Assembly: GCA_964411255.1 (NCBI GenBank)
Contig: CAYPKD010000004.1
Span: 94,037 to 158,036, forward strand
Length of the DNA: 64,000 nt
Reading direction: 5' to 3'
From: an uncultured Gammaproteobacteria bacterium
Lineage (GTDB): Bacteria > Patescibacteriota > Patescibacteriia > UBA11705 > DATKZF01
The translations under genes were made by a program, and so were the position numbers. Under the pieces are notes generated by a model. That model searched no databases. It saw only the letters and a list, made by a program, of their open reading frames with translations, and was not told where the DNA came from. This document shows positions 5,214-63,260 of the stretch, in pieces (positions within the stretch are counted from its first letter, which is position 1; the number at the start of each line of letters is the position of its first letter).

Positions 5214-6792
5214 CCTTTTTTTCCTTCAAAAATGCAAACCAATCATCAATTACATCAATAATTATATTAAACGGCGCAGCAATAATAAAATCTAAAATAA
5301 ATATAAAAATGTTTATTCTGGAAAATTTAGTGGAAATCCACTGGCCAACTTTAATAATTGGCATAAAGAAAAATTCTATTAAACTTGAAATGAATCCGCC
5401 TCTTTCTTTAACCACATACATTTCCTTAGCTGACTGGCGCAGCCGATAACCGAAAAAGCTGACAATGCTTAAAAATATTAAAAAGATAGCTCCGCTAATT
5501 ATATTAAATTCAAGCTGCATCAAACCCCAAATCAATGCACCAAAAGTTATAACATATGTGCAAAGATAGAATAGGCCAAAAATTACCTGCTTGATTGCTC
5601 CCCAATCCCGCGGCGGCTTGATTATTGTCTTTTTCATATCATCAACCCAGCCAAAAATTATTTTCATAGTTTCGCTTTGAATCTTTTTAGCATTCCTTGA
5701 TGAAGAAACAATTATTGTTTTGCCCAGAAAAAATAAAAGCAGGATCGGTACAAATAAATTAATCAGAAGCGGAATATAACTTATTTCCTTAATTATAAAA
5801 TATTCAAAAGGAACTTCGATCGCTAATGCCAATAGCATCTTTGTTAAAAATATATAAATCATTGCCCGAAATATACTTTTATTCAAACGCGATTTTACAA
5901 ACTTCTTCTTCTTGGTCACTGCTACATTCAAATAGGCCTTTGTCGTTTCCGGATCCAGAAGGATCGATTCAACCTTATCTGGATTTTGCTCAATAATATC
6001 TTTTACCATGTATAGATAAACGCTAAATGATTTTGAGTGACGCTGAATCTTTCTTGCCAGCCGGTGATGTAGATGATGATCAATTATTTTTTTTATTTCA
6101 GAAATATTTACTCTAATATCATCAAACACTTCATCAGGATCTGAGTACCAGGCAGGATAAAACAAACGAAACAATGAATAAGCCACCATATCATTATCAG
6201 ATTTTACCAAAGCCCTTTGCACGCCAACAAATATTTGCAAATCTTTTTCATCTTCAGATATTGAATCATCTAAAATTTCTGTCTGATACTTGGCAATTGC
6301 ATAAGTTGCGTTTATCAAAGCTCTTTTAAAATTTGAAGGCACTAAAATTTCTTCAATCTCAACTGATACCAAACCTAAAAGCCAGTTCCTCATTTTATTT
6401 TGTTGGGAATAGGTAAAGGAATCCTTTATTGCCAAATACAAATTTGCAGTTTTATTTAATGCAATATTAACCTCGTTTACTTTGGTTTCTGGCAGGCTGT
6501 TATTTTCAACATATCCAGCCCGAATCAATTCTTTAATAACTGATTCTCCGATTTGAGCCCCTCTGAGGCATTCATAAAATCTGCGCTTGCAAATCCGGTT
6601 AACAGCACTTTTTCGAAGTAAATGCTCGTCCCGATAATCAACAATATTTCTGATTTTTTCATATGCTAAAACAGCCTTGGCTACCACTTCATTTACGCCA
6701 ATAGTGCTGTCCTGCGCATATTCTGACGGAGCCTGTTCGTTATAATATGCAGCTATTAAATTTTCGATTGGTTTAGTTGGCATATTTACCAT
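5200..6792 (-). CDS. hypothetical protein, soluble N-terminal domain plus C-terminal 4-5 TM region
   Basis: 530 aa ORF; hydrophobic C-terminal third; no recognised family. Confidence 0.45.
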   Translation of the reverse strand: MVNMPTKPIENLIAAYYNEQAPSEYAQDSTIGVNEVVAKAVLAYEKIRNIVDYRDEHLLRKSAVNRICKRRFYECLRGAQIGESVIKELIRAGYVENNSLPETKVNEVNIALNKTANLYLAIKDSFTYSQQNKMRNWLLGLVSVEIEEILVPSNFKRALINATYAIAKYQTEILDDSISEDEKDLQIFVGVQRALVKSDNDMVAYSLFRLFYPAWYSDPDEVFDDIRVNISEIKKIIDHHLHHRLARKIQRHSKSFSVYLYMVKDIIEQNPDKVESILLDPETTKAYLNVAVTKKKKFVKSRLNKSIFRAMIYIFLTKMLLALAIEVPFEYFIIKEISYIPLLINLFVPILLLFFLGKTIIVSSSRNAKKIQSETMKIIFGWVDDMKKTIIKPPRDWGAIKQVIFGLFYLCTYVITFGALIWGLMQLEFNIISGAIFLIFLSIVSFFGYRLRQSAKEMYVVKERGGFISSLIEFFFMPIIKVGQWISTKFSRINIFIFILDFIIAAPFNIIIDVIDDWFAFLKEKKDEIY

Positions 6793-27810: not shown

Positions 27811-28017
27811 ATTTGTTTAGCAATTCCTGGTAAAATTGAATCAATTGATGAAAAAAACCAAACCGCACTGGTTAATTTTGATAATTTGAAAAAAAATATC
27901 AATATCAGCTTAATTAAACCAAAAATTGATGATTTTGTTATTGTACATGCGGGTTTTGCTATTGAGATAATTGATAAAAATGAGGCAATTGAAATAAAAA
28001 GGTTATTGAAACGTTAA
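27811..28017 (+). CDS. hypC: HypC/HupF-family hydrogenase maturation chaperone, lacking an ATG start (ATT at 27811 precedes the essential Cys codon)
   Basis: Translation (I)CLAIPGKIESIDEKNQTALVNFDNL...FVIVHAGFAIEIIDKNEAIEIKRLLKR matches the HypC N-terminal 'MCLAIPxKI' signature and beta-barrel length. No in-frame ATG, GTG or TTG between the upstream stop (27736) and the Cys codon. Confidence 0.6.
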   Translation: MCLAIPGKIESIDEKNQTALVNFDNLKKNINISLIKPKIDDFVIVHAGFAIEIIDKNEAIEIKRLLKR

Positions 28018-28020
28018 ATA

Positions 28021-28050
28021 TGTGTTATGTTGCGTTAATCAATGTGTTAT
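28021..28050. repeat. left inverted repeat flanking four-helix-bundle cassette 1
   Basis: tgtgttatgttgcgttaatcaatgtgtta pairs with the reverse complement of 28427..28460 (ggggttatggttgcgttaagtgggtgtta). Confidence 0.6.
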
Positions 28051-28065
28051 ATTACGTAATTAAAT

Positions 28066-28374
28066 ATGAAAATAAAAAATATAGAAGATCTTGATGCTTG
28101 GAAGGAAGCAATACTCTTTTGTGAAATGATCTATAAGTTAGCAAACAAACTGCCAATTAAGCATCTACGTGCAAGTGCTAGAGGAGTTGCTGCCAACATT
28201 GCCGAAAGATTTGGTAGATATTTCTATAAAGAGAATCTACGTTTTTATGGTATTGCAAAAGGTTGCTTAAATGAAGTTAAGAGTGATTTAAATATCTGTC
28301 TGCGAATAGAATATATAACTCAAGAAAATTTAATGAGTATATTTTTCAAGCAGATAAGGTTGAATCAATACTAA
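28066..28374 (+). CDS. four-helix-bundle protein (23S rRNA IVS protein / Avd family)
   Basis: 'LDAWKEAILFCEMIYKLANKLP...LRASARGVAANIAERFGRYF...FYGIAKGCLNEVKSDLNIC' follows the TIGR02436/PF05635 family pattern. Confidence 0.7.
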   Translation: MKIKNIEDLDAWKEAILFCEMIYKLANKLPIKHLRASARGVAANIAERFGRYFYKENLRFYGIAKGCLNEVKSDLNICLRIEYITQENLMSIFFKQIRLNQY

Positions 28375-28426
28375 ATGGATTAATAAACAGCGTATTAAAA
28401 AGACTTAAAAATATTGCCAAATAACG

Positions 28427-28460
28427 CATACTAACACCCACTTAACGCAACCATAACCCC
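28427..28460. repeat. right inverted repeat flanking four-helix-bundle cassette 1
   Basis: Reverse complement aligns with 28021..28050 at ~23 of 29 positions with one indel. Confidence 0.6.
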
Positions 28461-28467
28461 ATGTAAC

Positions 28468-29496
28468 ATGTATAACACCATAGATACAATCAATACACTG
28501 ACTTGCAAAATAAATCATCCTGTTAAATTGATGGAACTTTGCGGCACGCATTCGCAAACCGTGGCCAAATACAATTTAAAAAGCTTGCTGCCGCAAAATA
28601 TTGAATTAATCTCCGGCCCTGGCTGCCCTATTTGCGTCACTGATCAAACTGATATTGATATTGTAATTAGCCTGGCAGAAAATAATATTCCAATTGCCAT
28701 TTATGGTGATGCTTTAACATTGCCAGGCACAAATTCCAGTCTTGAAAAGTTAAAGCAGCAAGGTAAAAAAATCCATATTGTTTATTCAACTCAAGATGCA
28801 TTAAATATTCAAAAACAAGAACCAGACTTGATTTTCTTTGGAATTGGATTTGAGACAACCACTCCAATGACAGCTTGGGCACTCAAGCAAGGTCTTAAGG
28901 TTTATTCAGCACATAAACTTTTTCCACCAGCAATGGCAGCGCTTTTACAAAATCCTGATATCCAAATCGACGGATTTATTGATCCGGGTCATGTTTCTGC
29001 AATAATTGGAGAAAAGCCTTATAAACAATTTAATGTTCCTCAAGTTATATCCGGATTTGAGCCTGAGGATGTATTAATTTCAATTCAAATGCTGCTGGAA
29101 ATGATTTTGAAAAATAAAAATGAACTTAAAAACCAATACACACGAGTTGTAAAGCCAGATGGAAACATTGAAGCCAAAAAAATCATTGAAGAAGTTTTTG
29201 AAATTTCAGATGCCAAATGGCGCGGACTTGGCAACATTCCAAACTCCGGATTAAAAATAAAAACTAAATTTCAAAATCAGGATGCGGAATATATTCATAA
29301 AGATTTAATTGAAAAAATAAAACAAAACATTGAACCAAAACAAAATAAATGCATTTGTGGTAAAATACTGCAAGGATTGGCAAAACCTGGTGATTGCCCT
29401 CTATTTGCCAAGTCTTGCACACCGGAAAATCCTCAGGGAGCGTGCATGGTTTCAGTTGAAGGGAATTGCCAGATTGAGTACAGGTTTAATAACTAA
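28468..29496 (+). CDS. hypD: hydrogenase maturation factor HypD
   Basis: 'CGTHSQ', 'GPGCPICV', 'FFGIGFETTTP', 'PGHVSAIIG', and C-terminal 'CICG...CPLF...C...GACM' Fe-S cysteine motifs typical of HypD. Confidence 0.85.
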   Translation: MYNTIDTINTLTCKINHPVKLMELCGTHSQTVAKYNLKSLLPQNIELISGPGCPICVTDQTDIDIVISLAENNIPIAIYGDALTLPGTNSSLEKLKQQGKKIHIVYSTQDALNIQKQEPDLIFFGIGFETTTPMTAWALKQGLKVYSAHKLFPPAMAALLQNPDIQIDGFIDPGHVSAIIGEKPYKQFNVPQVISGFEPEDVLISIQMLLEMILKNKNELKNQYTRVVKPDGNIEAKKIIEEVFEISDAKWRGLGNIPNSGLKIKTKFQNQDAEYIHKDLIEKIKQNIEPKQNKCICGKILQGLAKPGDCPLFAKSCTPENPQGACMVSVEGNCQIEYRFNN

Positions 29497-29501
29497 TTTG
29501 G

Positions 29502-29540
29502 GGGAGGCTGGAAGCTGGGTGTAGGTTTAGAAGCTAGAAT
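29502..29540. repeat. left inverted repeat flanking four-helix-bundle cassette 2
   Basis: gggaggctggaagctgggtgtaggtttagaagctaga pairs with the reverse complement of 30035..30071 (gggatgctggaagctaggtatgggtgtggatgctaga), ~30 of 37 identical; an extra inner copy ctccagcttccagcc sits at 29968..29982. Confidence 0.7.
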
Positions 29541-29547
29541 ATACAAT

Positions 29548-29958
29548 ATGAACAATAACAAACAACCAATTAAAAGCTTTGATGACTTATGGGTTTATAC
29601 TGAAAGTTATAATGCCTCAATTATTATCTTCTCAGAAATTCTTCCAAAATTACCAGCTGAAGAAAAATTCGATTTAAAGGATCAAATACGAAGGGCCTAC
29701 AAAGCAGTTCCACGATTGATTGCCGAGGGATATGCTAAAAGACATCAAAAGGCAGGGTTTCAAAAATACTTGGACGATGCTAACGCAGAATCCAATGAAA
29801 TGATTGTTTGCTTACGGCAATGCAGGGACTTGTATAGTGAATTTATTGATAAAGATATATGTAAAAAACTTATAGAAATCTACACAAAATGCAGCAAAGG
29901 ACTCTGCAGCCTTTCCAAAACCTGGATGAGTTTTTCTAAACTTCCCCCAAAAAAATAA
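29548..29958 (+). CDS. four-helix-bundle protein (23S rRNA IVS / Avd family), second copy
   Basis: 'DQIRRAYKAVPRLIAEGYAKRH' matches the family core (RAA-SIP-NIAEG-GR); 136 aa. Confidence 0.65.
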   Translation: MNNNKQPIKSFDDLWVYTESYNASIIIFSEILPKLPAEEKFDLKDQIRRAYKAVPRLIAEGYAKRHQKAGFQKYLDDANAESNEMIVCLRQCRDLYSEFIDKDICKKLIEIYTKCSKGLCSLSKTWMSFSKLPPKK

Positions 29959-30034
29959 TATTTCTAACTCCAGCTTCCAGCCTTCGTCAAGACTTCGGCC
30001 GGCAGGCCAAATCCACAATTCGCTTCTAAAAAAA

Positions 30035-30071
30035 TCTAGCATCCACACCCATACCTAGCTTCCAGCATCCC
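30035..30071. repeat. right inverted repeat flanking four-helix-bundle cassette 2
   Basis: See 29502..29540. Confidence 0.7.
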
Positions 30072-30097: not shown

Positions 30098-31066
30098 ATG
30101 ATTGAATTAGAACACGGTGGCGGTGGTTATAAAAACAACCAACTAATAAAAGAACTCCGCCAAATCATTAATTTAAAAACAGACTGGACAAACATTGAAG
30201 ATGATGCAGCAATTTATGATCTTGGTGATAAAAAATTGGTTTTTACAACTGATGCTTTTATAGTTGATCCGATTTTCTTTCCAGGAGGAGATATTGGAAA
30301 AATTGCAGTTTGCGGGACCATTAATGATCTTGTTGTGATGGGAACAAAGCCATTGGGATTATCTTTAAGTATTGTAATCGAAGAAGGTTTTGCTAAAAAA
30401 GATCTTTTCAAAATAGCTGAATCCATTGATAAAATTTCAAAACAAACTAATATTCCAATTGTAACTGGTGATACAAAAGTAATTGATAAAGGAAAACTTG
30501 ATAAAATTGAAATAACCACAGCTGGAGTTGGCGTAACTGAAAAAGTAATTGACAATGGTGGTGCAAAAATTGGCGACAATATTATAACTTCCGGAGATTT
30601 AGGCGAGCATGGCGTTACTTTACTCGCCTATCGATTTGATTATCAAACTGATATAAAAAGCGACTGCAAAGCTTTATGGGAAGAATTTCAGGCAGTTGGG
30701 CCTTTATTAAACGCAGCCAAAGATCCAACTCGCGGCGGAGTGGCAGCAAATATAAATGAAATTGCAGAAAAGTCAAAAGTAAAAATTGTTTTAGACGAAA
30801 ATAAACTACCGTATAAAAAAGACGTAATTGCTTTAACGGAACTTTTAGGTATTGAATTATTTAATTTACCATCAGAAGGCCGCTTTATTGCAGCAGTTAG
30901 TGAGGAGAACACTGATGAAGCATTAAAAAAACTTCAGGAATTTAATCCTGAAGCTAAAGTGATAGGAAAATGCGTTCAAGGTGATGGCGTATTTTTGAAG
31001 ACCAAACTTGGTTCTGAGAGAAGGATTGAGGAGCCAAAGGGTAAATTGATACCGAGGATTTGCTAA
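30098..31066 (+). CDS. hypE: hydrogenase maturation factor HypE (carbamoyl dehydratase, AIR-synthase-related)
   Basis: N-terminus 'IELEHGGGGYKN', 'FTTDAFIVDPIFFPGGDIGKIAVCGTINDLVVMG', and C-terminal 'PRIC' ending with the thiocyanate-carrying Cys. Confidence 0.85.
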   Translation: MIELEHGGGGYKNNQLIKELRQIINLKTDWTNIEDDAAIYDLGDKKLVFTTDAFIVDPIFFPGGDIGKIAVCGTINDLVVMGTKPLGLSLSIVIEEGFAKKDLFKIAESIDKISKQTNIPIVTGDTKVIDKGKLDKIEITTAGVGVTEKVIDNGGAKIGDNIITSGDLGEHGVTLLAYRFDYQTDIKSDCKALWEEFQAVGPLLNAAKDPTRGGVAANINEIAEKSKVKIVLDENKLPYKKDVIALTELLGIELFNLPSEGRFIAAVSEENTDEALKKLQEFNPEAKVIGKCVQGDGVFLKTKLGSERRIEEPKGKLIPRIC

Positions 31067-35143: not shown

Positions 35144-36337
35144 CTAGAACTTTTCATTTCTCAAGCAATACATCATCTGCCCCAAACTCAATCCATAATC
35201 TCCCCTCTCAATATTTTTAGACATAATTACTCCATTGTTTTTCGCAACTTGACTCATAATCTTATTATTTGCCATTCCTCCTCCAAAATATATTGGTAAA
35301 TTTGAATCAGCTTTTTTCGCAATATTAATTAGCCCTTCAATAACATATTTTTGAACAGTAGCTGCCAGTCTTCCCTTATCCTTATCCAAATTATCCAAAA
35401 GCCATTCAAAAAGATAAGAGATATTTAACTCATATTGTTTTTCAATTTCTCTGTTTCTCTGTTTCTCTGTCTTTGTGTTTTTCTGCTCTTCTGTTTCTCT
35501 GTCTTTGTGTTTTTCTGTTATCCTAGGCTCTAAATCAAACGGATCTGCTGATTTCTTCTCCAGTAAATCAACGGGCTCATGTTTATAATTTCTTTCATTT
35601 TTACAAAGGCCAAGTAAAACTGAGGCTGCATCCAGTATTCTTCCAGTACTACTAGTTTCTACTGAATTAAATTTTTGTTCGTACATTTTTACAAATAAAT
35701 CAAACTCCTCCTTTTTAAAAAACTTTTCAAAAATCGACCGTATTTCAGCCGGCTTTTTTATTTTTAAAAGTATTGAAAGAAGCATTCTGGCCGGCTCTTT
35801 TATTGATAAATCCGCACCGCATAATAATTGATTTTCCAAATGCCCAATTCTTTTTATTTTATCTTTGCTTTTTTCTTTTTGATTTTGACTGATAAGGAAC
35901 ACTTCACCTCCCCAAATCTTTCCATCAAGACCATACCCTGTACCGTCTGCTGCTATACCTATAAACTTGGAGAAGCTGAGTGTGGGTATAGAAGCTAGAA
36001 TAGTGTAATCAAATAATACTGAATAAACATGCGCAATGTGATGTTGTACTTTTTCAAGCTTTGCGTCATATTTATCAGCTAATTCTTCTCCCAATTTTGA
36101 GGTTTTATATTCTGGATGCAGATCAACACATATTATATCTGGAACAAAACTATTTTTTTCCAAAAATTCAAATATAATCTTTTTATAATTTTCAAAATTA
36201 TTTTCTTCAATCAAATCACCTAGATCTTCTTGGTAATAAATCTTTCCTTTATTATAAACACAAAAATTCCCAGCTGACTCAGGTCCTAAGGCTAGGATTT
36301 TTTGATTCTTATTAATCGTCACGTCAAACCCTTTCAT
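35144..36337 (-). CDS. HypF-like carbamoyltransferase, Kae1/TsaD-like domain only (no acylphosphatase, Zn-finger or YrdC domains)
   Basis: 'VQHHIAHVYSV' (the HHxAH metal motif of the HypF Kae1-like domain), 'IGIAADGTGYG', 'GGGMANNKIM...GDYGLSLGQMMY'. Contains a charged low-complexity insert encoded by a tandem DNA repeat. Confidence 0.6.
   Translation of the reverse strand: MKGFDVTINKNQKILALGPESAGNFCVYNKGKIYYQEDLGDLIEENNFENYKKIIFEFLEKNSFVPDIICVDLHPEYKTSKLGEELADKYDAKLEKVQHHIAHVYSVLFDYTILASIPTLSFSKFIGIAADGTGYGLDGKIWGGEVFLISQNQKEKSKDKIKRIGHLENQLLCGADLSIKEPARMLLSILLKIKKPAEIRSIFEKFFKKEEFDLFVKMYEQKFNSVETSSTGRILDAASVLLGLCKNERNYKHEPVDLLEKKSADPFDLEPRITEKHKDRETEEQKNTKTEKQRNREIEKQYELNISYLFEWLLDNLDKDKGRLAATVQKYVIEGLINIAKKADSNLPIYFGGGMANNKIMSQVAKNNGVIMSKNIERGDYGLSLGQMMYCLRNEKF
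35450..35520. repeat. imperfect ~35-bp tandem repeat x2 inside the hypF-like CDS
   Basis: ttctctgtttctctgtctttgtgtttttctg repeated; encodes 'TEKHKDRETEEQKNTKTEKQRNRE'. Confidence 0.7.
35972..36003. repeat. solo copy of the cassette-2 inverted-repeat motif inside the hypF-like CDS
   Basis: gaagctgagtgtgggtatagaagctagaata versus 29511..29541 gaagctgggtgtaggtttagaagctagaata (28 of 31 identical). Confidence 0.6.
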
Positions 36338-44798: not shown

Positions 44799-44943
44799 CT
44801 GAAAATAAAGTATAACAGATTGTATAAATTGTCAAATTTTGCTTAATCTATAAAACCATCTGTTTTATTTCTATATTTTTCAGTCTCTTATGAATATCGG
44901 GACAAAATCTTTTTATTCAGAACATCTTTTCATGTATAGCAAC

Positions 44944-45101
44944 GGGGGTCTGGGGGGCTGATTGCCCCTGGCGCGATAACAGAACTCAATCGAAGCTTCG
45001 CATTTGAAGACCCCCAGCGGTTTTTGGTTACTTTTTGACGCCAAAAAGTAACTTGGCGCAAGCCAACATTGCAAAGGGCAAAGCAGGCTTTGCCTGTATA
45101 G
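44944..45101. repeat. structured dispersed repeat, copy B
   Basis: Same core as copy A; variable loop differs; terminal hairpin caggc-ttt-gcctg; flanked by 'gtatag' on both sides. Confidence 0.8.
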
Positions 45102-45154
45102 GAAAAAATAATATTTGAATTTTAAAAAGCCTGCATTAAAAATGCAAACTCTTT

Positions 45155-48351: not shown

Positions 48352-48526
48352 ATGTTTGAAGCTAATTTATGTACTTTTATTATATCAAAAAAATGCTATT
48401 TTCCAAAATAATAAGGTAATTTTAAAAAAAATTTTACCTGTAATTATCCAAGATTGAATAGCTATACTATTACTTTAACTAAGGTTTTAGCTTTTTTATT
48501 ACAGCTCAATCATAATCATCCCTTTC

Positions 48527-48660
48527 GTGGGGTCTGGGGTGGCCACTCAGCGCCATATAAAAAAGCGTCAAATCGTATTCATTGTGATAGCGATTTGGCC
48601 ACCCCAGAACTTTTTGGTTCTTTTTGGTTACAAAAAGAACAAGGCCGCGCGCCTAGCGCA
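48527..48660. repeat. structured dispersed repeat, diverged copy E with compensatory substitutions
   Basis: Long-range stem is now ctggggtggcc/ggccaccccag; hairpin is gttctttttg-gttac-aaaaagaac; both structures retained despite sequence change. Confidence 0.65.
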
Positions 48661-55055: not shown

Positions 55056-55145
55056 AAAAATAAGTTTATTAGAAGTACATATAATTTACCTAATTTTATT
55101 CAATTTGACAACTTTTATTTAGAACTTTCAACCGTTTATAGAAAC

Positions 55146-55334
55146 GGGGGTCTGGGGGGCTGATTGCCCGATGCGCGATACCTGCACATAATCAATACTT
55201 CGCATTTGAAGCCCCCCAGCGGTTTTTGCCCAGCACCAAAACAAAGTTTGGTGCTGGGTCGGCGCAAGCCGAGAACCGTATGGTTCTGGGCAAGTCAACA
55301 TTGAAAAGCCCAAAGCAGGCTCCAGGCCTGTTTT
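55146..55334. repeat. structured dispersed repeat, copy C with a compensatory hairpin swap and an inserted hairpin
   Basis: Core identical; central palindrome replaced by cccagcaccaaa-acaaag-tttggtgctggg; extra hairpin agaacc-gtat-ggttct; ends caggc-tccag-gcctg+TTTT. Confidence 0.8.
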
Positions 55335-55446
55335 GAAAAAAGTGACCTTTGCGTTATTAATCTTTAAAATAATTTAGTAGCTATTGTTGTTTCACAAAAA
55401 AACCAGATGTAAATCTGGTTTTTTATATATCATTTGTATAAATCTT

Positions 55447-58008: not shown

Positions 58009-58034
58009 CCCGCTTTCAGAAAGCGAGTTTTTTA
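58009..58034 (+). terminator. rho-independent terminator
   Basis: cgctttc-agaa-agcg+TTTTTT. Confidence 0.5.
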
Positions 58035-58062
58035 TTTCAGATCAATTATTATATTCCCTATC

Positions 58063-58085
58063 GTGGGGTCTGGGGTTGCCATTCA
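58063..58085. repeat. 5' fragment of an E-type copy of the structured repeat
   Basis: cgtggggtctggggttgcc matches the 5' end of copy E; no 3' partner strand present. Confidence 0.5.
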
Positions 58086-58146
58086 ATTATATAAATAAAA
58101 ATTCACACATTGATGAAGATCAGAACATTTTTTCATTTATAGCATC

Positions 58147-58305
58147 GGGGGTCTGGGGGGCTGATTGCCCCCGGAGCGATCCTCAAACTTAATCGTTGCT
58201 TCGCATTTGAAGCCGCTCAGCACTTTTTGGTTACTTTTTGGTGCCAAAAAGTAACTTGGCGCAAGCCAACATTGCAAAACCCATAGCAGGCTCCAGGCCT
58301 GTTTT
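58147..58305. repeat. structured dispersed repeat, copy D
   Basis: Core as copies A/B; long-range stem partly degraded (agccgctcagc); ends caggc-tccag-gcctg+TTTT as in copy C. Confidence 0.8.
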
Positions 58306-58377
58306 GAAAAAGATTAAATTTATTTTTTCCTAAATAAAAAACCCTGATACTATAGGGATATAAAACTCGTAATTCAA

Positions 58378-59622: not shown

Positions 59623-60381
59623 TTACTCTATTGAAATTGAAAAAATTGCTTGTGTATATCCAGTATCTTTTTCCTTATCTATTCCAAATGAAATCTTTTT
59701 CCCAGAGTCAAAATTTATATCTGTTTTAATCAAGCCTCTTTTTGCACTTAATTCGGTTGAAAATGATTTAATAATACCAAGTGTCTCTTTTTCTAAAATA
59801 TCATCTGGCTCAATGTTTGATATAATATACCAATTAAATTCTTCATGTTGTTCGGTGATACGATGTATTGAACCGACTAATAATCCTTTAATTCCTTCTA
59901 CTTCCAATATAATTTCCCAAGATGCTGGCAACCATGGTCTTCCTTTCTTGTCTTTCTTTCTTAATTCCTTTAGATCAAACTCTATAGCTTCTAAATAGTC
60001 TTTATTTAAACTTAATAATAACTCATAGGTAGCTTCATCACTTAACTTCACTTCTGAAACATTTTTTTTACGTATGCGTTCCTGATTAGTATCCTCCAGA
60101 AGATCAATTGGCTCTGTATTGAAGGCTGGTTCTGCACTTTCTTGTCTTTTTCTTTTCTTTTCAATTTTATCCTTTATCTTCATTAACTCATTCTTATAAT
60201 CCGTATAAAAATCCAAAGCCTCTTTCAACTTCCCAGCTTTTTCAGCAGCCACAGCCTTATCCATGATCTTTCCCAGAAATTCCTTTTCTTCATCAGTTAA
60301 AGGCACACGCTTAACCTCACTCCGCCGCGGGCGGGCCATTTGGAGTTGGGATTCGAGAGATTGGGGTTTTTCTGACTTCAT
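59623..60381 (-). CDS. paralog-family protein 1 (shared N-terminal helical domain, unique C-terminus)
   Basis: N-terminus 'PQSLESQLQMARPRRSEVKRVPLTDEEKEFLGKIMDKAVAAEKAGKLKEALDFYTDYKNEL' shared with three neighbours. Confidence 0.55.
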   Translation of the reverse strand: MKSEKPQSLESQLQMARPRRSEVKRVPLTDEEKEFLGKIMDKAVAAEKAGKLKEALDFYTDYKNELMKIKDKIEKKRKRQESAEPAFNTEPIDLLEDTNQERIRKKNVSEVKLSDEATYELLLSLNKDYLEAIEFDLKELRKKDKKGRPWLPASWEIILEVEGIKGLLVGSIHRITEQHEEFNWYIISNIEPDDILEKETLGIIKSFSTELSAKRGLIKTDINFDSGKKISFGIDKEKDTGYTQAIFSISIE

Positions 60382-60393
60382 ATCTTTTACATG

Positions 60394-61086
60394 CTATTTC
60401 ATTATATCACCTTTTATTTTTCCCTCTTCTTTCAGTCTTTCTGCTTTTTCAACTAATTTTTTAGTACAGCCCTCAATTATAAGATCGTTGCCAACATATA
60501 AATCATCTGGCAAATCTTTAATTGATGAATTATTTAATATTAGATCACCATCAATGCGAGTATTCTCAGGTAAAGAATCCATTATTGCTCCGTTCATATT
60601 AAGTGTACCAAAAACTCTAAGACCTGAACCTTTCCACTTTTTTACAACAGTATTTTTTAATATTAATGAATTACTAACTAACATGTTTGCAGGAAATTCA
60701 TCAATAATTTTCCCTGTTAAATTTAACATTTGTTTTGTTTCCAGCGCTGGAAGCTTTGATAAATCAAAAACAATCTCTACAAAATTTTCCTCTGTGAATC
60801 CAATAGCAGCAATCCATTCTTCTAGTTTTTCCCTTGTCCAAACAATTTCTTTCTCTTTTTCCTTTATCTTTAACAACTCATTCTTATACTCAGTATAAAA
60901 CCCTAAAGCCTCAGCCAATTCCCCAGCTTTTTCCGCAGCCACAGCCTTATCCATAATCTTTCCTAAAAATTCCTTTTCTTCAGCAGTCAGCGGCACACGC
61001 TTAACATCACTCCGCCGCGGGCGGGCCATTTGAAGTTGGGATTCGAGAGATTGAGGTTGTTCTTTTTGCATAGAGCTATTAGACAT
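60394..61086 (-). CDS. paralog-family protein 2 (shared N-terminal domain; C-terminus related to paralog 3)
   Basis: 'QPQSLESQLQMARPRRSDVKRVPLTAEEKEFLGKIMDKAVAAEKAGELAEAL'; C-terminal '...GCTKKLVEKAERLKEEGKIKG' similar to paralog 3; the true start may be the internal Met 15 codons downstream. Confidence 0.55.
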   Translation of the reverse strand: MSNSSMQKEQPQSLESQLQMARPRRSDVKRVPLTAEEKEFLGKIMDKAVAAEKAGELAEALGFYTEYKNELLKIKEKEKEIVWTREKLEEWIAAIGFTEENFVEIVFDLSKLPALETKQMLNLTGKIIDEFPANMLVSNSLILKNTVVKKWKGSGLRVFGTLNMNGAIMDSLPENTRIDGDLILNNSSIKDLPDDLYVGNDLIIEGCTKKLVEKAERLKEEGKIKGDIMK

Positions 61087-61109
61087 TAATCATTTGTAAT
61101 TGAGAATAA

Positions 61110-61823
61110 CTATGAAGGAATGATTACTTTTCCCTTAATTTTTCCTTCTTTTGCTAACTTTTGCGCTTTTTCTTTCACTTTATCAGAACAACCACCAACC
61201 CAAAAATTATGCCCGACATATATATTATCTGGCAAATTTTCAATAGCTGACCTTGCTATGTCAAAACTCCCTGTAACATGCGTATTTTCAGGTATGTGAG
61301 ATAGTTTTGCATTTTTCATATCACATGAACCTTTTACAGTTAATCCCGGGCCATTCCATTTTTTAACTTCCGCATCATTTAATAAAAGATGTCCATTAAC
61401 AGTTAAATTTGGCGGGAATTCGTCAATTACTTTACCTCTCAAACGCAGATAGCCTATTGTTTCTAATCGAGGGAATTTGGTTAAATCAAAAGTCTGTGCT
61501 GTATATTCTGAAATTGAAAAATCAGGAAATTCATAAACCTTTTCCACCCACTCTTCAAGCCTACCTAGAGTCCATATTTTTTTTTCATCCTCTTTTATTT
61601 TTTTATCCTTCTCTTCTTTAATCTTTAACAATTCATTTTTATAGTCAGTATATAAATCTAATGCTTCTTGCAGCTTCCCTGCCTTTTCCGCAGCCACTGC
61701 CTTATCCATAATATTTCCCAGAAATTCCTTTTCTTCATCAGTTAAAGGCACACGCTTAATCTCAGCACGTTTTGGTTTGGCCATTTTTAATTGACTTTCT
61801 AGTGATTGAGGTTGTTCTGGCAT
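61110..61823 (-). CDS. paralog-family protein 3
   Basis: Start set to 'MPEQPQSLESQLKMAKPKRAEIKRVPLTDEEKEFLGNIMDKAVAAEKAGKLQEAL'; the track start 61844 would overlap the upstream gene. Confidence 0.55.
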   Translation of the reverse strand: MPEQPQSLESQLKMAKPKRAEIKRVPLTDEEKEFLGNIMDKAVAAEKAGKLQEALDLYTDYKNELLKIKEEKDKKIKEDEKKIWTLGRLEEWVEKVYEFPDFSISEYTAQTFDLTKFPRLETIGYLRLRGKVIDEFPPNLTVNGHLLLNDAEVKKWNGPGLTVKGSCDMKNAKLSHIPENTHVTGSFDIARSAIENLPDNIYVGHNFWVGGCSDKVKEKAQKLAKEGKIKGKVIIPS

Positions 61824-61840
61824 ATATTTTAGGTATAAAA

Positions 61841-63205
61841 TCAAATCGTATTTATTCTCTTTACATAATTGTTTCCCTCCTTAGCAATTATATATATTTT
61901 ATCCTCATTTATTAAACCAAAATGATAAATTTCATCATAATCTTTACCAACTTTTTCTCCCTTTTCATTTACTACAAACCATTTGCCATCTTTTTTTGCT
62001 GCAAAAACAATTTTACCTCCAATATCTCGTGGATCTTTAACCTCATCATAATCGTGTCCAACTTTCTCCCCTGCTTCATTTACTACAAACTTTTTGCCAT
62101 CTTTTTTTGCTGAAAAAGTAATTTTACCTCCAATATCTTGTACCTGCCCAACATTATCATAATCTTGTCCAACTTTTTCTCCTTTTTCATTTATTGTAAA
62201 CCATTTACCATCTTTTTTTGCTGAAAAAGCAATTTTACCTCCAATATCTTGTGGATCTTTAACCTCATCATAATCTTGTCCGACTTTTTCTCCTTTTTCA
62301 TTCATAACAAACTGTTTATTATCCTTGATTGCTACAAAAGCAATTTTTCCTCCAATATCCTGTGGGTCCCAAATTTTATCATAATCTTGTTCAGTTTCTT
62401 CACCCTTTTCGTTTACTATAAACCATTTGCCATCTTTTTTTGCTCGAAAAACAATTTTACCTCCAATATCTTGTGCCTGCCCAATATGATCATAATCTTG
62501 TCCAACTTTTTCTCCTTTTTCATTTATTATAAACCATTTGCTACCTTTTTTTGCAGAAAAAGCAAGCTTACCACTAATATTTTTTAAAAAACTAATATGA
62601 TCATAATCTTGTCCAACTTTTTCTCCTTTTTCATTAACTACAAAGCATTTGTCATCTTTTTTTGCTCGAAAAACAATTTTTCCTCCAATTTCATGAGGAT
62701 ACCCAACATCATCATAATCGTGTCCAACTTTTTCTCCTTTTTCATTTATTATAAACTCTTTGTTGTTTTTTTCAGCATCAAAAGCAATCCTGCCTCCGAT
62801 ACTTTCAGGATAGCCAACATCATCATATTCATCTCCAACTTTTTCTCCCTTTTCATTTACTACAAACCATTTGCCATCTTTTTTTGCTGCAAAAGCAATT
62901 TTTCCTCCAATATCTTGAGGCTTTCGAACTCCATCATATTTCTTTATATCTATTAAAGCCACTATTAGTCCTTCATTATTTTCCTTTTCTTCTCTTTTTT
63001 TAATCTTTAATAATTCATTCTTATAATTCGAATAAAAATCCAAAGCCTCTTCTAATCTTCCAGCCTTTTCCGCAGCCACTGCCTTATCCATAATATTTCC
63101 CAGAAATTCCTTTTCTTCATCAGTTAAAGGCACACGCTTAATCTCAGCACGTTTTGGTTTGGCCATTTTTAATTGACTTTCTAGTGATTGAGGTTGTTCT
63201 GGCAT
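61841..63205 (-). CDS. paralog-family protein 4: shared N-terminal domain plus 11 tandem WG-like beta repeats
   Basis: N-terminus identical in 55 of 58 residues to paralog 3 (near-identical DNA); C-terminal '(I)GGKIxFxAKKDGKWFVVNEKGEKVGxDYDxV' repeated 11 times (WG/KWG-repeat-like). Confidence 0.6.
   Translation of the reverse strand: MPEQPQSLESQLKMAKPKRAEIKRVPLTDEEKEFLGNIMDKAVAAEKAGRLEEALDFYSNYKNELLKIKKREEKENNEGLIVALIDIKKYDGVRKPQDIGGKIAFAAKKDGKWFVVNEKGEKVGDEYDDVGYPESIGGRIAFDAEKNNKEFIINEKGEKVGHDYDDVGYPHEIGGKIVFRAKKDDKCFVVNEKGEKVGQDYDHISFLKNISGKLAFSAKKGSKWFIINEKGEKVGQDYDHIGQAQDIGGKIVFRAKKDGKWFIVNEKGEETEQDYDKIWDPQDIGGKIAFVAIKDNKQFVMNEKGEKVGQDYDEVKDPQDIGGKIAFSAKKDGKWFTINEKGEKVGQDYDNVGQVQDIGGKITFSAKKDGKKFVVNEAGEKVGHDYDEVKDPRDIGGKIVFAAKKDGKWFVVNEKGEKVGKDYDEIYHFGLINEDKIYIIAKEGNNYVKRINTI
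61960..62930. repeat. ~99-bp coding tandem repeat x11 (WG-like repeats)
   Basis: Periodic 'ttttacctccaatatc...tttttctcc...' units; generates the spurious F-rich antisense ORFs 61922..62956. Confidence 0.8.
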
Positions 63206-63260
63206 ATATTTTTAAAAAGGAAGGAAATATTTCATTCCTCCTTTTATATATATCATTAAA

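Follow-up and report, generated by a model that had tools for sequence, protein, structure and literature searches.

The 64,000-nt stretch of contig CAYPKD010000004.1 analysed here (the window; its lineage is denoted W) carries a hypF-like gene whose coding sequence contains a single 31-nt copy of the terminal inverted repeat, or arm, of a small hairpin cassette located between hypD and hypE, with a PF05635 gene in its loop. We lean towards the explanation that this solo arm patch was written into a disordered loop of the hypF-like protein on at least two occasions, probably by gene conversion, and that it probably serves no function. The patch is a variant on two known themes, intervening sequence (IVS)-type cassettes and repeat-derived coding sequence. 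L- and P-numbers are our labels for related loci and proteins.

A 31-nt match between the hypF-like gene and a cassette arm

The cassette in question, cassette 2 (type B), has a G/T-rich left arm (29502-29541, + strand) whose 3' part TAGAAGCTAGAAT is closely followed by the start codon of a 136-aa open reading frame (ORF; 29548-29958, +). This ORF belongs to PF05635 (23S_rRNA_IVP, four-helix-bundle, Avd-like; Pfam 4.5e-17), which we take to be the Avd family, and has 2296 homologs at E<=1e-20. It occupies the hairpin loop, is the only ORF of the cassette, which encodes no nuclease or recombinase, and is followed by a C/A-rich right arm (30035-30071, +). The arms form an inverted repeat (29502-29538 against 30035-30071; 37 nt, 81% complementary) and are paired with each other in the minimum-free-energy structure (duplex energy -52.8 kcal/mol). 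The left arm is orthologous to arms in L004 and L012.

The patch spans 35972-36002 and encodes, on the - strand, residues 112-122 (TILASIPTLSF) of the hypF-like protein. Its + strand, GAAGCTGAGTGTGGGTATAGAAGCTAGAATA, is identical to 29511-29541 (+) within the left arm, GAAGCTGGGTGTAGGTTTAGAAGCTAGAATA, at 28 of 31 positions. An earlier note on this DNA had reported this identity, which we confirmed together with the start and the 31-nt length of the segment; the end it gave (36003) lies one base too far. No such match arose in 100 dinucleotide shuffles (0 expected), and in an all-versus-all search of the window for direct 31-mer pairs with at most three mismatches the patch and the arm were the only pair left once obvious repeat families and one low-complexity AT-rich pair were set aside. 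Within the protein the patch is flanked as YTILASIPTLSFS (residues 111-123), in the wider context DYTILASIPTLSFSKF. Read in the frame of the gene, the reverse complement of the arm gives ILASKPTPSF where the gene itself has ILASIPTLSF, and seven of the eight residues common to patch and arm use identical codons (P=1.9e-5 given the codon usage of the window), the shared ones including the rare codons CTA (7% of Leu), TTC (12% of Phe) and AGC (15% of Ser). An nhmmer profile made from nine true cassette arms alone, with the hypF-like copy excluded, matched the hypF-like site both in the window (E=1.5e-5) and in L004 (E=3e-5). The identity, the arm-only profile and the codon agreement show that the similarity is nucleotide-level homology and not a by-product of the protein sequence. 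The link that the earlier note drew between the gene and the cassette family is borne out: the copy is real and homologous to a cassette arm. Its sequence is identical across three independent assemblies and is therefore no assembly artefact. The three differences from arm to patch are G>A, A>G and T>A.

Sub-motif searches of the 64-kb window returned just the two arms and the one solo copy, and the arm-only profile detected no other solo copy in the window plus six related loci (~170 kb, the relatives contributing ~106 kb). A metagenome-wide scan with a degenerate 27-mer (AAGCTNNGTNTNGGNNTAGAAGCTAGA) hit the contig of L004 alone, at its arm and its hypF-like copy, while a 17-nt pattern gave 22 matches in viral contigs, none extending past the pattern, which is chance level. 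The further copies of the motif envisaged by the earlier note were thus absent from the window, the six related loci and the metagenome collection, the L004 contig apart. A dispersed repeat or miniature inverted-repeat transposable element was ruled out by the same sub-motif, profile and metagenome scans, which yielded only known arms and the orthologous hypF-like site.

The patch lies in a loop of unchanged length

The hypF-like gene (35144-36337, - strand; 397 aa) encodes the Kae1-like domain of HypF alone (Pfam HypF_C at residues 10-110, 1e-22; HypF_C_2 at residues 127-387, 3e-42) and aligns to residues ~400-640 of the solved HypF 4g9i and 400-613 of 3vth. It does not represent a full-length HypF, since the acylphosphatase, zinc-finger and YrdC domains are missing and the ORF upstream encodes a histidine-kinase ATPase. 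We collected 1336 homologs; of the 120 best, those with a name belong mostly to Patescibacteria/CPR (candidate phyla radiation).

The patch is located in the loop that connects the HHxAH and DGTG motifs. The earlier note had raised the prospect that the segment is an insertion relative to the Kae1-like domain, and the alignment of orthologs speaks otherwise: the loop measures 27 aa in the window against a mode of 26 aa across 118 CPR orthologs, and its length is equal throughout an alignment of 27 orthologs, save for a few with other inserts. An insertion reading was ruled out by this alignment and the loop-length distribution. The loop is ~9 aa longer than in the solved full-length HypF proteins (4g9i, 3vth), an extra length shared by the whole CPR family. 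In an AlphaFold2 (AF2) model of the hypF-like protein with a mean predicted local distance difference test (pLDDT) score of 90.4, residues 112-115 end the helix 99-115 and pLDDT falls below 50 at residues 117-120, within the patch-encoded loop. The site is, on this model, a permissive one, a predicted disordered surface loop.

Other repeat-derived in-frame inserts are found in the same loop in L010/P0006, L012/P0007, P0056, P0063 and P0111. The insert of L010/P0006 is 27 aa long, palindromic and made of TACGAATCTAC units, with no second copy found within its 21-kb locus; that of P0063 reads SCHSERS...GRNDK; and that of L012 adds 8 aa in frame (LRLRSGQA, CTTCGACTTCGCTCAGGACAAGC), splitting an arm-like patch. 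The HHxAH-DGTG loop is a general hot spot for selfish-DNA insertion, with inserts acquired independently in several CPR lineages. Elsewhere in the hypF-like coding sequence, an imperfect 8-nt-period repeat (TGTTTCTC; 35436-35523) accounts for a low-complexity ETEEQKNTKTEKQRNREIEKQ segment of the protein; L004 lacks this segment, and AF2 pLDDT is <50 at residues 291-296.

A second arm variant at the same site in a sister sub-clade

Seven syntenic loci were compared with the window. The W-type arm sequence is found in the hypF-like loop of W and L004. The L007 genome contains a further B-type PF05635 gene (P0199, locus L117), set in a GT2-Wzy spacer and preceded by a mini-hairpin whose left arm is CGGTATCGGTTGCGGTATCGAAGCTGGTATG. 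This arm matches the hypF-like loop of L008/L009 at 28/31 positions (blastn E=2e-6), that of L119 at 27/31 and L007's own at 24/31, and in L008, L119 and L007 alike the aligned positions of the gene are precisely those of the window 31-mer. Identity across types (W-type patch with L117 arm, L117-type patch with W-type arm) amounts to 17-20/31. The differences between arm types are concentrated in the 5' 18 nt, whereas the 3' part TAGAAGCTNGAAT is common to all arm variants and encodes I-[LR]-A-S in the hypF-like gene. A Thermodesulfobacteriota cassette carries TATAGAAGCTCGAATG, which ends in the PF05635 start codon of that cassette and matches the L008 patch at 16/16 positions.

A tree based on concatenated hypF-like, HypD and HypE proteins grouped W with L004 (100% bootstrap) and L007 with L008 (52%), with L012, L010 and L013 outside; L119 was placed with L008 by sequence identity. 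A clade of W, L004 and L012 as the source of their shared cassette 2 was dropped, its bootstrap being 15%. Two arm variants at one register in two sub-clades imply at least two arm-to-gene transfers. Compared with the arms, the patches of W and L004 have two derived states in common, and no covariation specific to either lineage is seen, so the event in these two lineages predates their split. A single ancient event followed by decay was abandoned, given the match of the L117 arm to the L008, L119 and L007 patches.

The outgroup ortholog L120 (~50% identical) has the same gene order, no cassette and a loop differing in length by one residue; against all arms this loop scored 6-8, the null level, showing no arm similarity. 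In L012, the loop including its insert aligns with the 3' flank of the window cassette, including a GC-rich segment (score 23, against a maximum of 19.5 in 2000 shuffles), which suggests a third arm-to-gene transfer. The aligning segment (29962-30034, +), composed of an inner partial right-arm copy and GC-rich CCTTCGTCAAGACTTCGGCCGGCAGGCC, occurs in the window's cassette 2 only, being absent from the cassettes of L004 and L012, and its inner arm copy (29970-29990) pairs with 29498-29518. The GC-rich CCTTCGTCAAGACTTCGGCCGGCAGGCC (29982-30010) itself resembles the L012 in-frame insert CTTCGACTTCGCTCAGGACAAGC (L012 ~6370-6395): either a small GC-rich element targets arm sequence, or the L012 loop was copied from an arm already carrying such a stretch.

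Related arms flank PF05635 cassettes in many phyla

Cassette 2 sits between hypD (28468-29496, +; Pfam HypD 2.7e-126) and hypE (30098-31066, +; Pfam AIRS and AIRS_C), outside any rRNA helix; the sole Rfam match in the window at gathering score is a tRNA. Synteny is retained in all relatives, and occupancy by cassettes varies. Writing A and B for the two types, the window reads hypC-A-hypD-B-hypE, L004 has B alone and L013 has A alone; L012 has B and, immediately before the hypF-like gene, a second B-type cassette; in L008, A is joined by a B-type cassette after MscS; and the syntenic loci of L007 and L010 have none. The W-type (B-type) arms are common to five cassettes in three different spacers of four genomes. 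The type A element of the window, cassette 1, lies in the hypC-hypD spacer (28001-28470, +; PF05635 ORF 28066-28374, Pfam 4.8e-18), and its arms, built of GCGTTA and TAACGC units, are unrelated to those of cassette 2 and have no solo copy.

Some hairpin is present in every hypD-hypE spacer. The spacers without a cassette (L007, L008, L010, L013 and L120) contained no arm-like sequence and showed no resemblance to the patch. In L007 (126 nt), L008 (100 nt) and L010 (46 nt) they hold a different, unrelated hairpin without an ORF in each case, and the spacer has therefore been colonised repeatedly by palindromic DNA. Genomes with a hypD-hypE cassette have in common a hypD ending in ...FNN* plus TAAT (window 29480-29500 and the orthologous sites of L004 and L012). 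The cassette protein W_2 is about as close to L012_2 (85%) as to L004_2 (84%), although the host proteins of L012 have diverged much further (HypD 77%, against 87% for L004). These sequence comparisons hint that the cassette may have been exchanged laterally together with its flanks.

A scan of the genome collection yielded 196 B-type relatives, from which we kept 80 loci whose proteins are 51-64% identical. They derive from many phyla, including Omnitrophota, Bacteroidota, Patescibacteria, Thermodesulfobacteriota and Planctomycetes, and most have consensus arms GGTTACGA[AGT]GCCCGT[AT]TCG paired with CGA[AT]ACGGGC[ATC]TCGTAACC. Such arms are borne by relatives from many phyla whose proteins show 54-61% identity. 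Intermediates toward the W-type arm were seen in L016 (TAGGTTTAGAAGCTAG), L057 and L062, and mini-hairpins with the same arms but no ORF in the intergenic DNA of other genomes. Across 46 cassettes the mean flank duplex was -60 kcal/mol, the sense strand being the more stable in 31 (p=0.02). An Rfam search with the arms returned no matching family, and the consensus-arm hairpins around PF05635 genes look like an undescribed family of hairpin elements. Related arms occur around cassettes of unrelated phyla, and the patch is missing from the outgroup gene; we therefore take the arms to be a property of the cassette lineage and not of the hypF-like gene, and the direction of copying to have been from arm to gene; the converse, arms derived from the gene, was ruled out on the same grounds. 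Examples of the arm consensus within L014-L093 are L089 (~2470-2492 and 2893-2915), L015 (755-807), L020 (4217-4324), L040 (4686-4760) and L077 (638-727). The contig of P0126 (JGI 3300075153) has a B-type PF05635 gene, 72% identical to that of the window, at a hydrogenase operon, immediately upstream of the [NiFe] hydrogenase small and large subunit genes and hypA.

How arm sequence may have entered the gene

In the explanation that we lean towards, a cassette 2-like element with a ~40-bp stem and a PF05635 ORF in its loop would have acted as donor through its G/T-rich terminal repeat. Arm DNA would have been copied into the hypF-like segment encoding the helix end and disordered surface loop, replacing the resident sequence with no gain in length, from a W-type arm in W and L004 and from an L117-type arm in L008, L119 and L007. 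As the most likely mechanism we propose a rare event of ectopic gene conversion over a short tract, or of template switching, with the arm as source and the gene as recipient; the equal length of the replacement, the identical register, the conserved 3' anchor and the permissive loop all fit it. The conversion would be anchored on the conserved 3' half of the arm, TAGAAGCTNGAAT. The disordered loop would tolerate the change, and the patch would then drift as ordinary coding sequence; we assign it no present function. The transfer process appears to have been episodic and not continuous, because the derived states of W and L004 do not track their own arms and the L007 patch is least like its own arm.

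Several points weigh against this explanation. At 31 nt, with a conserved anchor of ~13-17 nt, the tract is a short one for conversion of the RecA type, and neither an intermediate of conversion nor a tract boundary can be demonstrated. The clade comprises eight orthologs, the count of at least two events resting on two patch types together with the suggestive third case in L012, and the L117-type donor was seen in the L007 genome, L008 being known from an 8-kb contig alone. Covariation of patch and arm would be equally expected from functional RNA-RNA pairing. Synonymous divergence between W and L004 is too low for a test of nucleotide-level selection (18% of same-amino-acid codons differ): 102 of 312 eight-codon windows with unchanged amino acids also lack any synonymous change, and this comparison was set aside as uninformative.

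Pairing in trans, an option raised by the earlier note, would have the hypF-like mRNA, which is right-arm-like, bind the left arm and ribosome-binding region of cassette transcripts, providing an RNase III substrate or coupled expression, with selection keeping the patch complementary to the resident arm variant. The capacity to pair is there: the predicted duplex of the hypF-like transcript with the left arm reaches -49.7 kcal/mol compared with -52.8 in cis in W, and -48.4 compared with -47.9 in L004, and patch type covaries with arm type between the two sub-clades. Covariation alone does not separate pairing from conversion. We nevertheless consider functional pairing unlikely, as the cis partner ~500 nt away on the same RNA should outcompete a partner in trans, the L007 patch is the least similar (24/31) to the arm of its own genome, and the L012 patch is split by an in-frame insertion, with a duplex of -39.2 against -54.6 in cis despite the presence of two cassettes. 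Moreover, the operons that host the matching cassettes are unrelated (hypD-hypE in the window, GT2-Wzy in L117) and suggest no consistent regulatory logic, and no lineage-specific compensatory change distinguishes W from L004. A broader proposal is that the hypF-like loop is a dedicated landing pad, actively rewritten from arms, or that the patch is kept for pairing between mRNA and arm; in its landing-pad version, RNA- or protein-guided copying could involve the Avd-like PF05635 protein, as a non-mutagenic relative of the homing of diversity-generating retroelements (DGRs). We hold this to be slightly less likely still; if true, it would mean that IVS-like cassettes interact specifically with one host gene and are not inert spacers.

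An insertion footprint, in which a whole cassette or an ORF-less mini-hairpin entered the loop segment and was later mostly deleted to leave one arm, strikes us as no likelier than functional pairing. The loop is a proven insertion hot spot (L010, L012, P0056, P0063, P0111), and ORF-less mini-hairpins of the same arms exist in intergenic DNA of other genomes; yet loop length is unchanged in five lineages with two patch types, which would need exactly compensating deletions, no second arm or PF05635 remnant lies beside the patch, and both patch types share an identical register. Under the refuting condition set in the earlier note, both its footprint and its target-site reading fail, as no further copies of the motif turned up in the window, the six related loci or, beyond the L004 contig, the metagenome collection; a different variant at the same register in the sister clade points to repeated replacement by arms, not to one insertion or excision. 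That note also proposed that the patch is a recognition or homing target, a site recognised by the cassette, or by a factor that acts on the cassette, and used for integration. Cassettes do recur near the gene (hypD-hypE, hypC-hypD, downstream of MscS and, in L012, immediately upstream of the hypF-like gene), but we regard this as very unlikely: none of eight orthologs has a cassette at the patch, an empty target should look like joined flanks and not an internal arm, the empty hypD-hypE spacers (L007, L008, L010, L013, L120) have no arm-like sequence, and the cassette encodes a four-helix-bundle protein alone, with no nuclease or recombinase. Even less probable is a DGR-like transfer, whereby the Avd-family protein and a reverse transcriptase encoded elsewhere would copy arm RNA (the template repeat) into the gene (the variable repeat). 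The family identity of PF05635, the equal-length replacement within a coding sequence and a conserved end that could act as an initiation of mutagenic homology (IMH) anchor would all fit, but the differences (G>A, A>G, T>A) include at most one at adenine in either orientation, the tract measures 31 nt, the 20 window ORFs scanned include no reverse transcriptase (RVT) domain, and there is no hypervariation, the patch being identical in three assemblies. A DGR was rejected on mismatch pattern, tract length and the absence of a reverse transcriptase among these ORFs. Coincidence, a chance likeness of coding loop and arm inherited by close relatives, is the least credible of all. The arms are internally repetitive and of modest complexity, and the patch of W and L004, shared by descent, counts as one observation; shuffles, however, predict no match, the window has no other orphan pair, the agreement in codons has P=1.9e-5, and in the other clade the same register holds a different arm variant at 28/31 identity (E=2e-6), so that chance is effectively refuted.

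Comparison with known systems

The 23S rRNA IVSs of Coxiella and Leptospira have terminal inverted repeats as a stem and an S23p ORF in the loop, the Coxiella IVS being 428-444 nt long with a 28-bp stem and excised by RNase III (PMC4990558). PF05635 ORFs occur in rRNA insertions of CPR bacteria (PMC11270868), and the family is cited in a paper on DGRs (PMC10053308). Like these IVSs, cassette 2 spans a few hundred nt, its terminal inverted repeats form a long stem whose loop holds a PF05635 ORF, and AG-rich sequence closely precedes the start codon; the cassette's likeness to an RNase III-excised IVS is drawn from sequence and predicted fold. Unlike them, the cassettes lie in spacers of protein-coding operons (hypC-hypD, hypD-hypE, after MscS, GT2-Wzy) and not in an rRNA helix. 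We came across no account, in the literature searched, of an IVS arm standing alone in a coding sequence.

Small repeats such as the Rickettsia palindromic elements (RPEs), reportedly described by Ogata et al. in 2000, can lie in frame within coding sequences. An RPE is a complete palindrome, contributes 30-50 residues and recurs in many genes. The patch resembles them in being repeat-element DNA translated within a conserved protein at a permissive surface position, but it consists of one arm, adds no length, occupies a single site per genome and comes in different variants by lineage. It does not behave as an RPE-like in-frame insertion, adding no residues relative to orthologs and not being multi-copy in the 64 kb. 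Conversion from mini-cassettes and concerted evolution are exemplified by pilS to pilE in Neisseria and by the families of repetitive extragenic palindromes and bacterial interspersed mosaic elements (REP/BIME). The patch shares with conversion of this type a non-reciprocal copying of a short tract from a non-coding donor to a coding recipient, with register and length kept; in contrast, nothing observed here points to conversion that is programmed or of high frequency, and no element initiating recombination is known. The donor in this case is a selfish-element terminus, sharing very little homologous length with the recipient.

As in a DGR, an Avd-family gene lies beside a repeat of which a copy sits in the coding sequence of a nearby gene. 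DGR repeats are typically ~100 nt or more, and the patch differs in its 31-nt tract, in differences that are not adenine-specific, in the absence of hypervariability and of a reverse transcriptase among the 20 ORFs scanned. Nor does cassette 2 look like a site-specific or homing cassette, PF05635 being its sole ORF and the empty hypD-hypE spacers of five relatives being unlike the patch.

Other features of the window

Upstream of cassette 1, a hypC frame (27811-28017) encodes the canonical N-terminus CLAIPGKI with no ATG, GTG or TTG before the Cys codon. The codon preceding this Cys is ATT (27811-27813), and the public gene call starts internally (43 aa), which suggests that hypC uses a non-canonical ATT start codon. 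A GC-rich element of roughly 190 nt is present in four copies (2176-2367, 44917-45108, 55119-55340 and 58120-58311) in this genome of 33% GC, with partial copies at 48492-48564 and 58028-58100. Each copy combines a conserved 5' part (GGGGGTCTGGGGGGCTGATTGCCCC) with a hairpin in its interior and a 3' end resembling a terminator; the 55119 copy has a different, still self-complementary sequence in place of the hairpin. The 58120 copy had no Rfam match at E<=1. These elements may be a family of paralogous small RNAs. Finally, nine tandem 111-nt units (37-aa repeats) at 61817-63004 lie inside an ORF at 61841-63205, and the interval 60146-63212 contains four related repeats of 240 nt.

Implications

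Cassettes encoding the PF05635 "IVS protein" have been known mainly as curiosities of rRNA genes; here they appear as hairpin elements in operon spacers of many phyla. The most valuable by-product of this analysis is the conserved pan-phylum family of arms around PF05635 genes in mRNA spacers, which has no Rfam match. Such an element can write its terminal repeat over a stretch of a conserved host gene, leaving the length of the gene unchanged, and can do so repeatedly at one site, an unusual route from selfish-element DNA to protein sequence that is invisible to annotation. If the match between patch and arm were under selection, this would provide the first hint that a PF05635 element interacts specifically with a host gene, along with an experimental handle on a very widespread family of unknown function.

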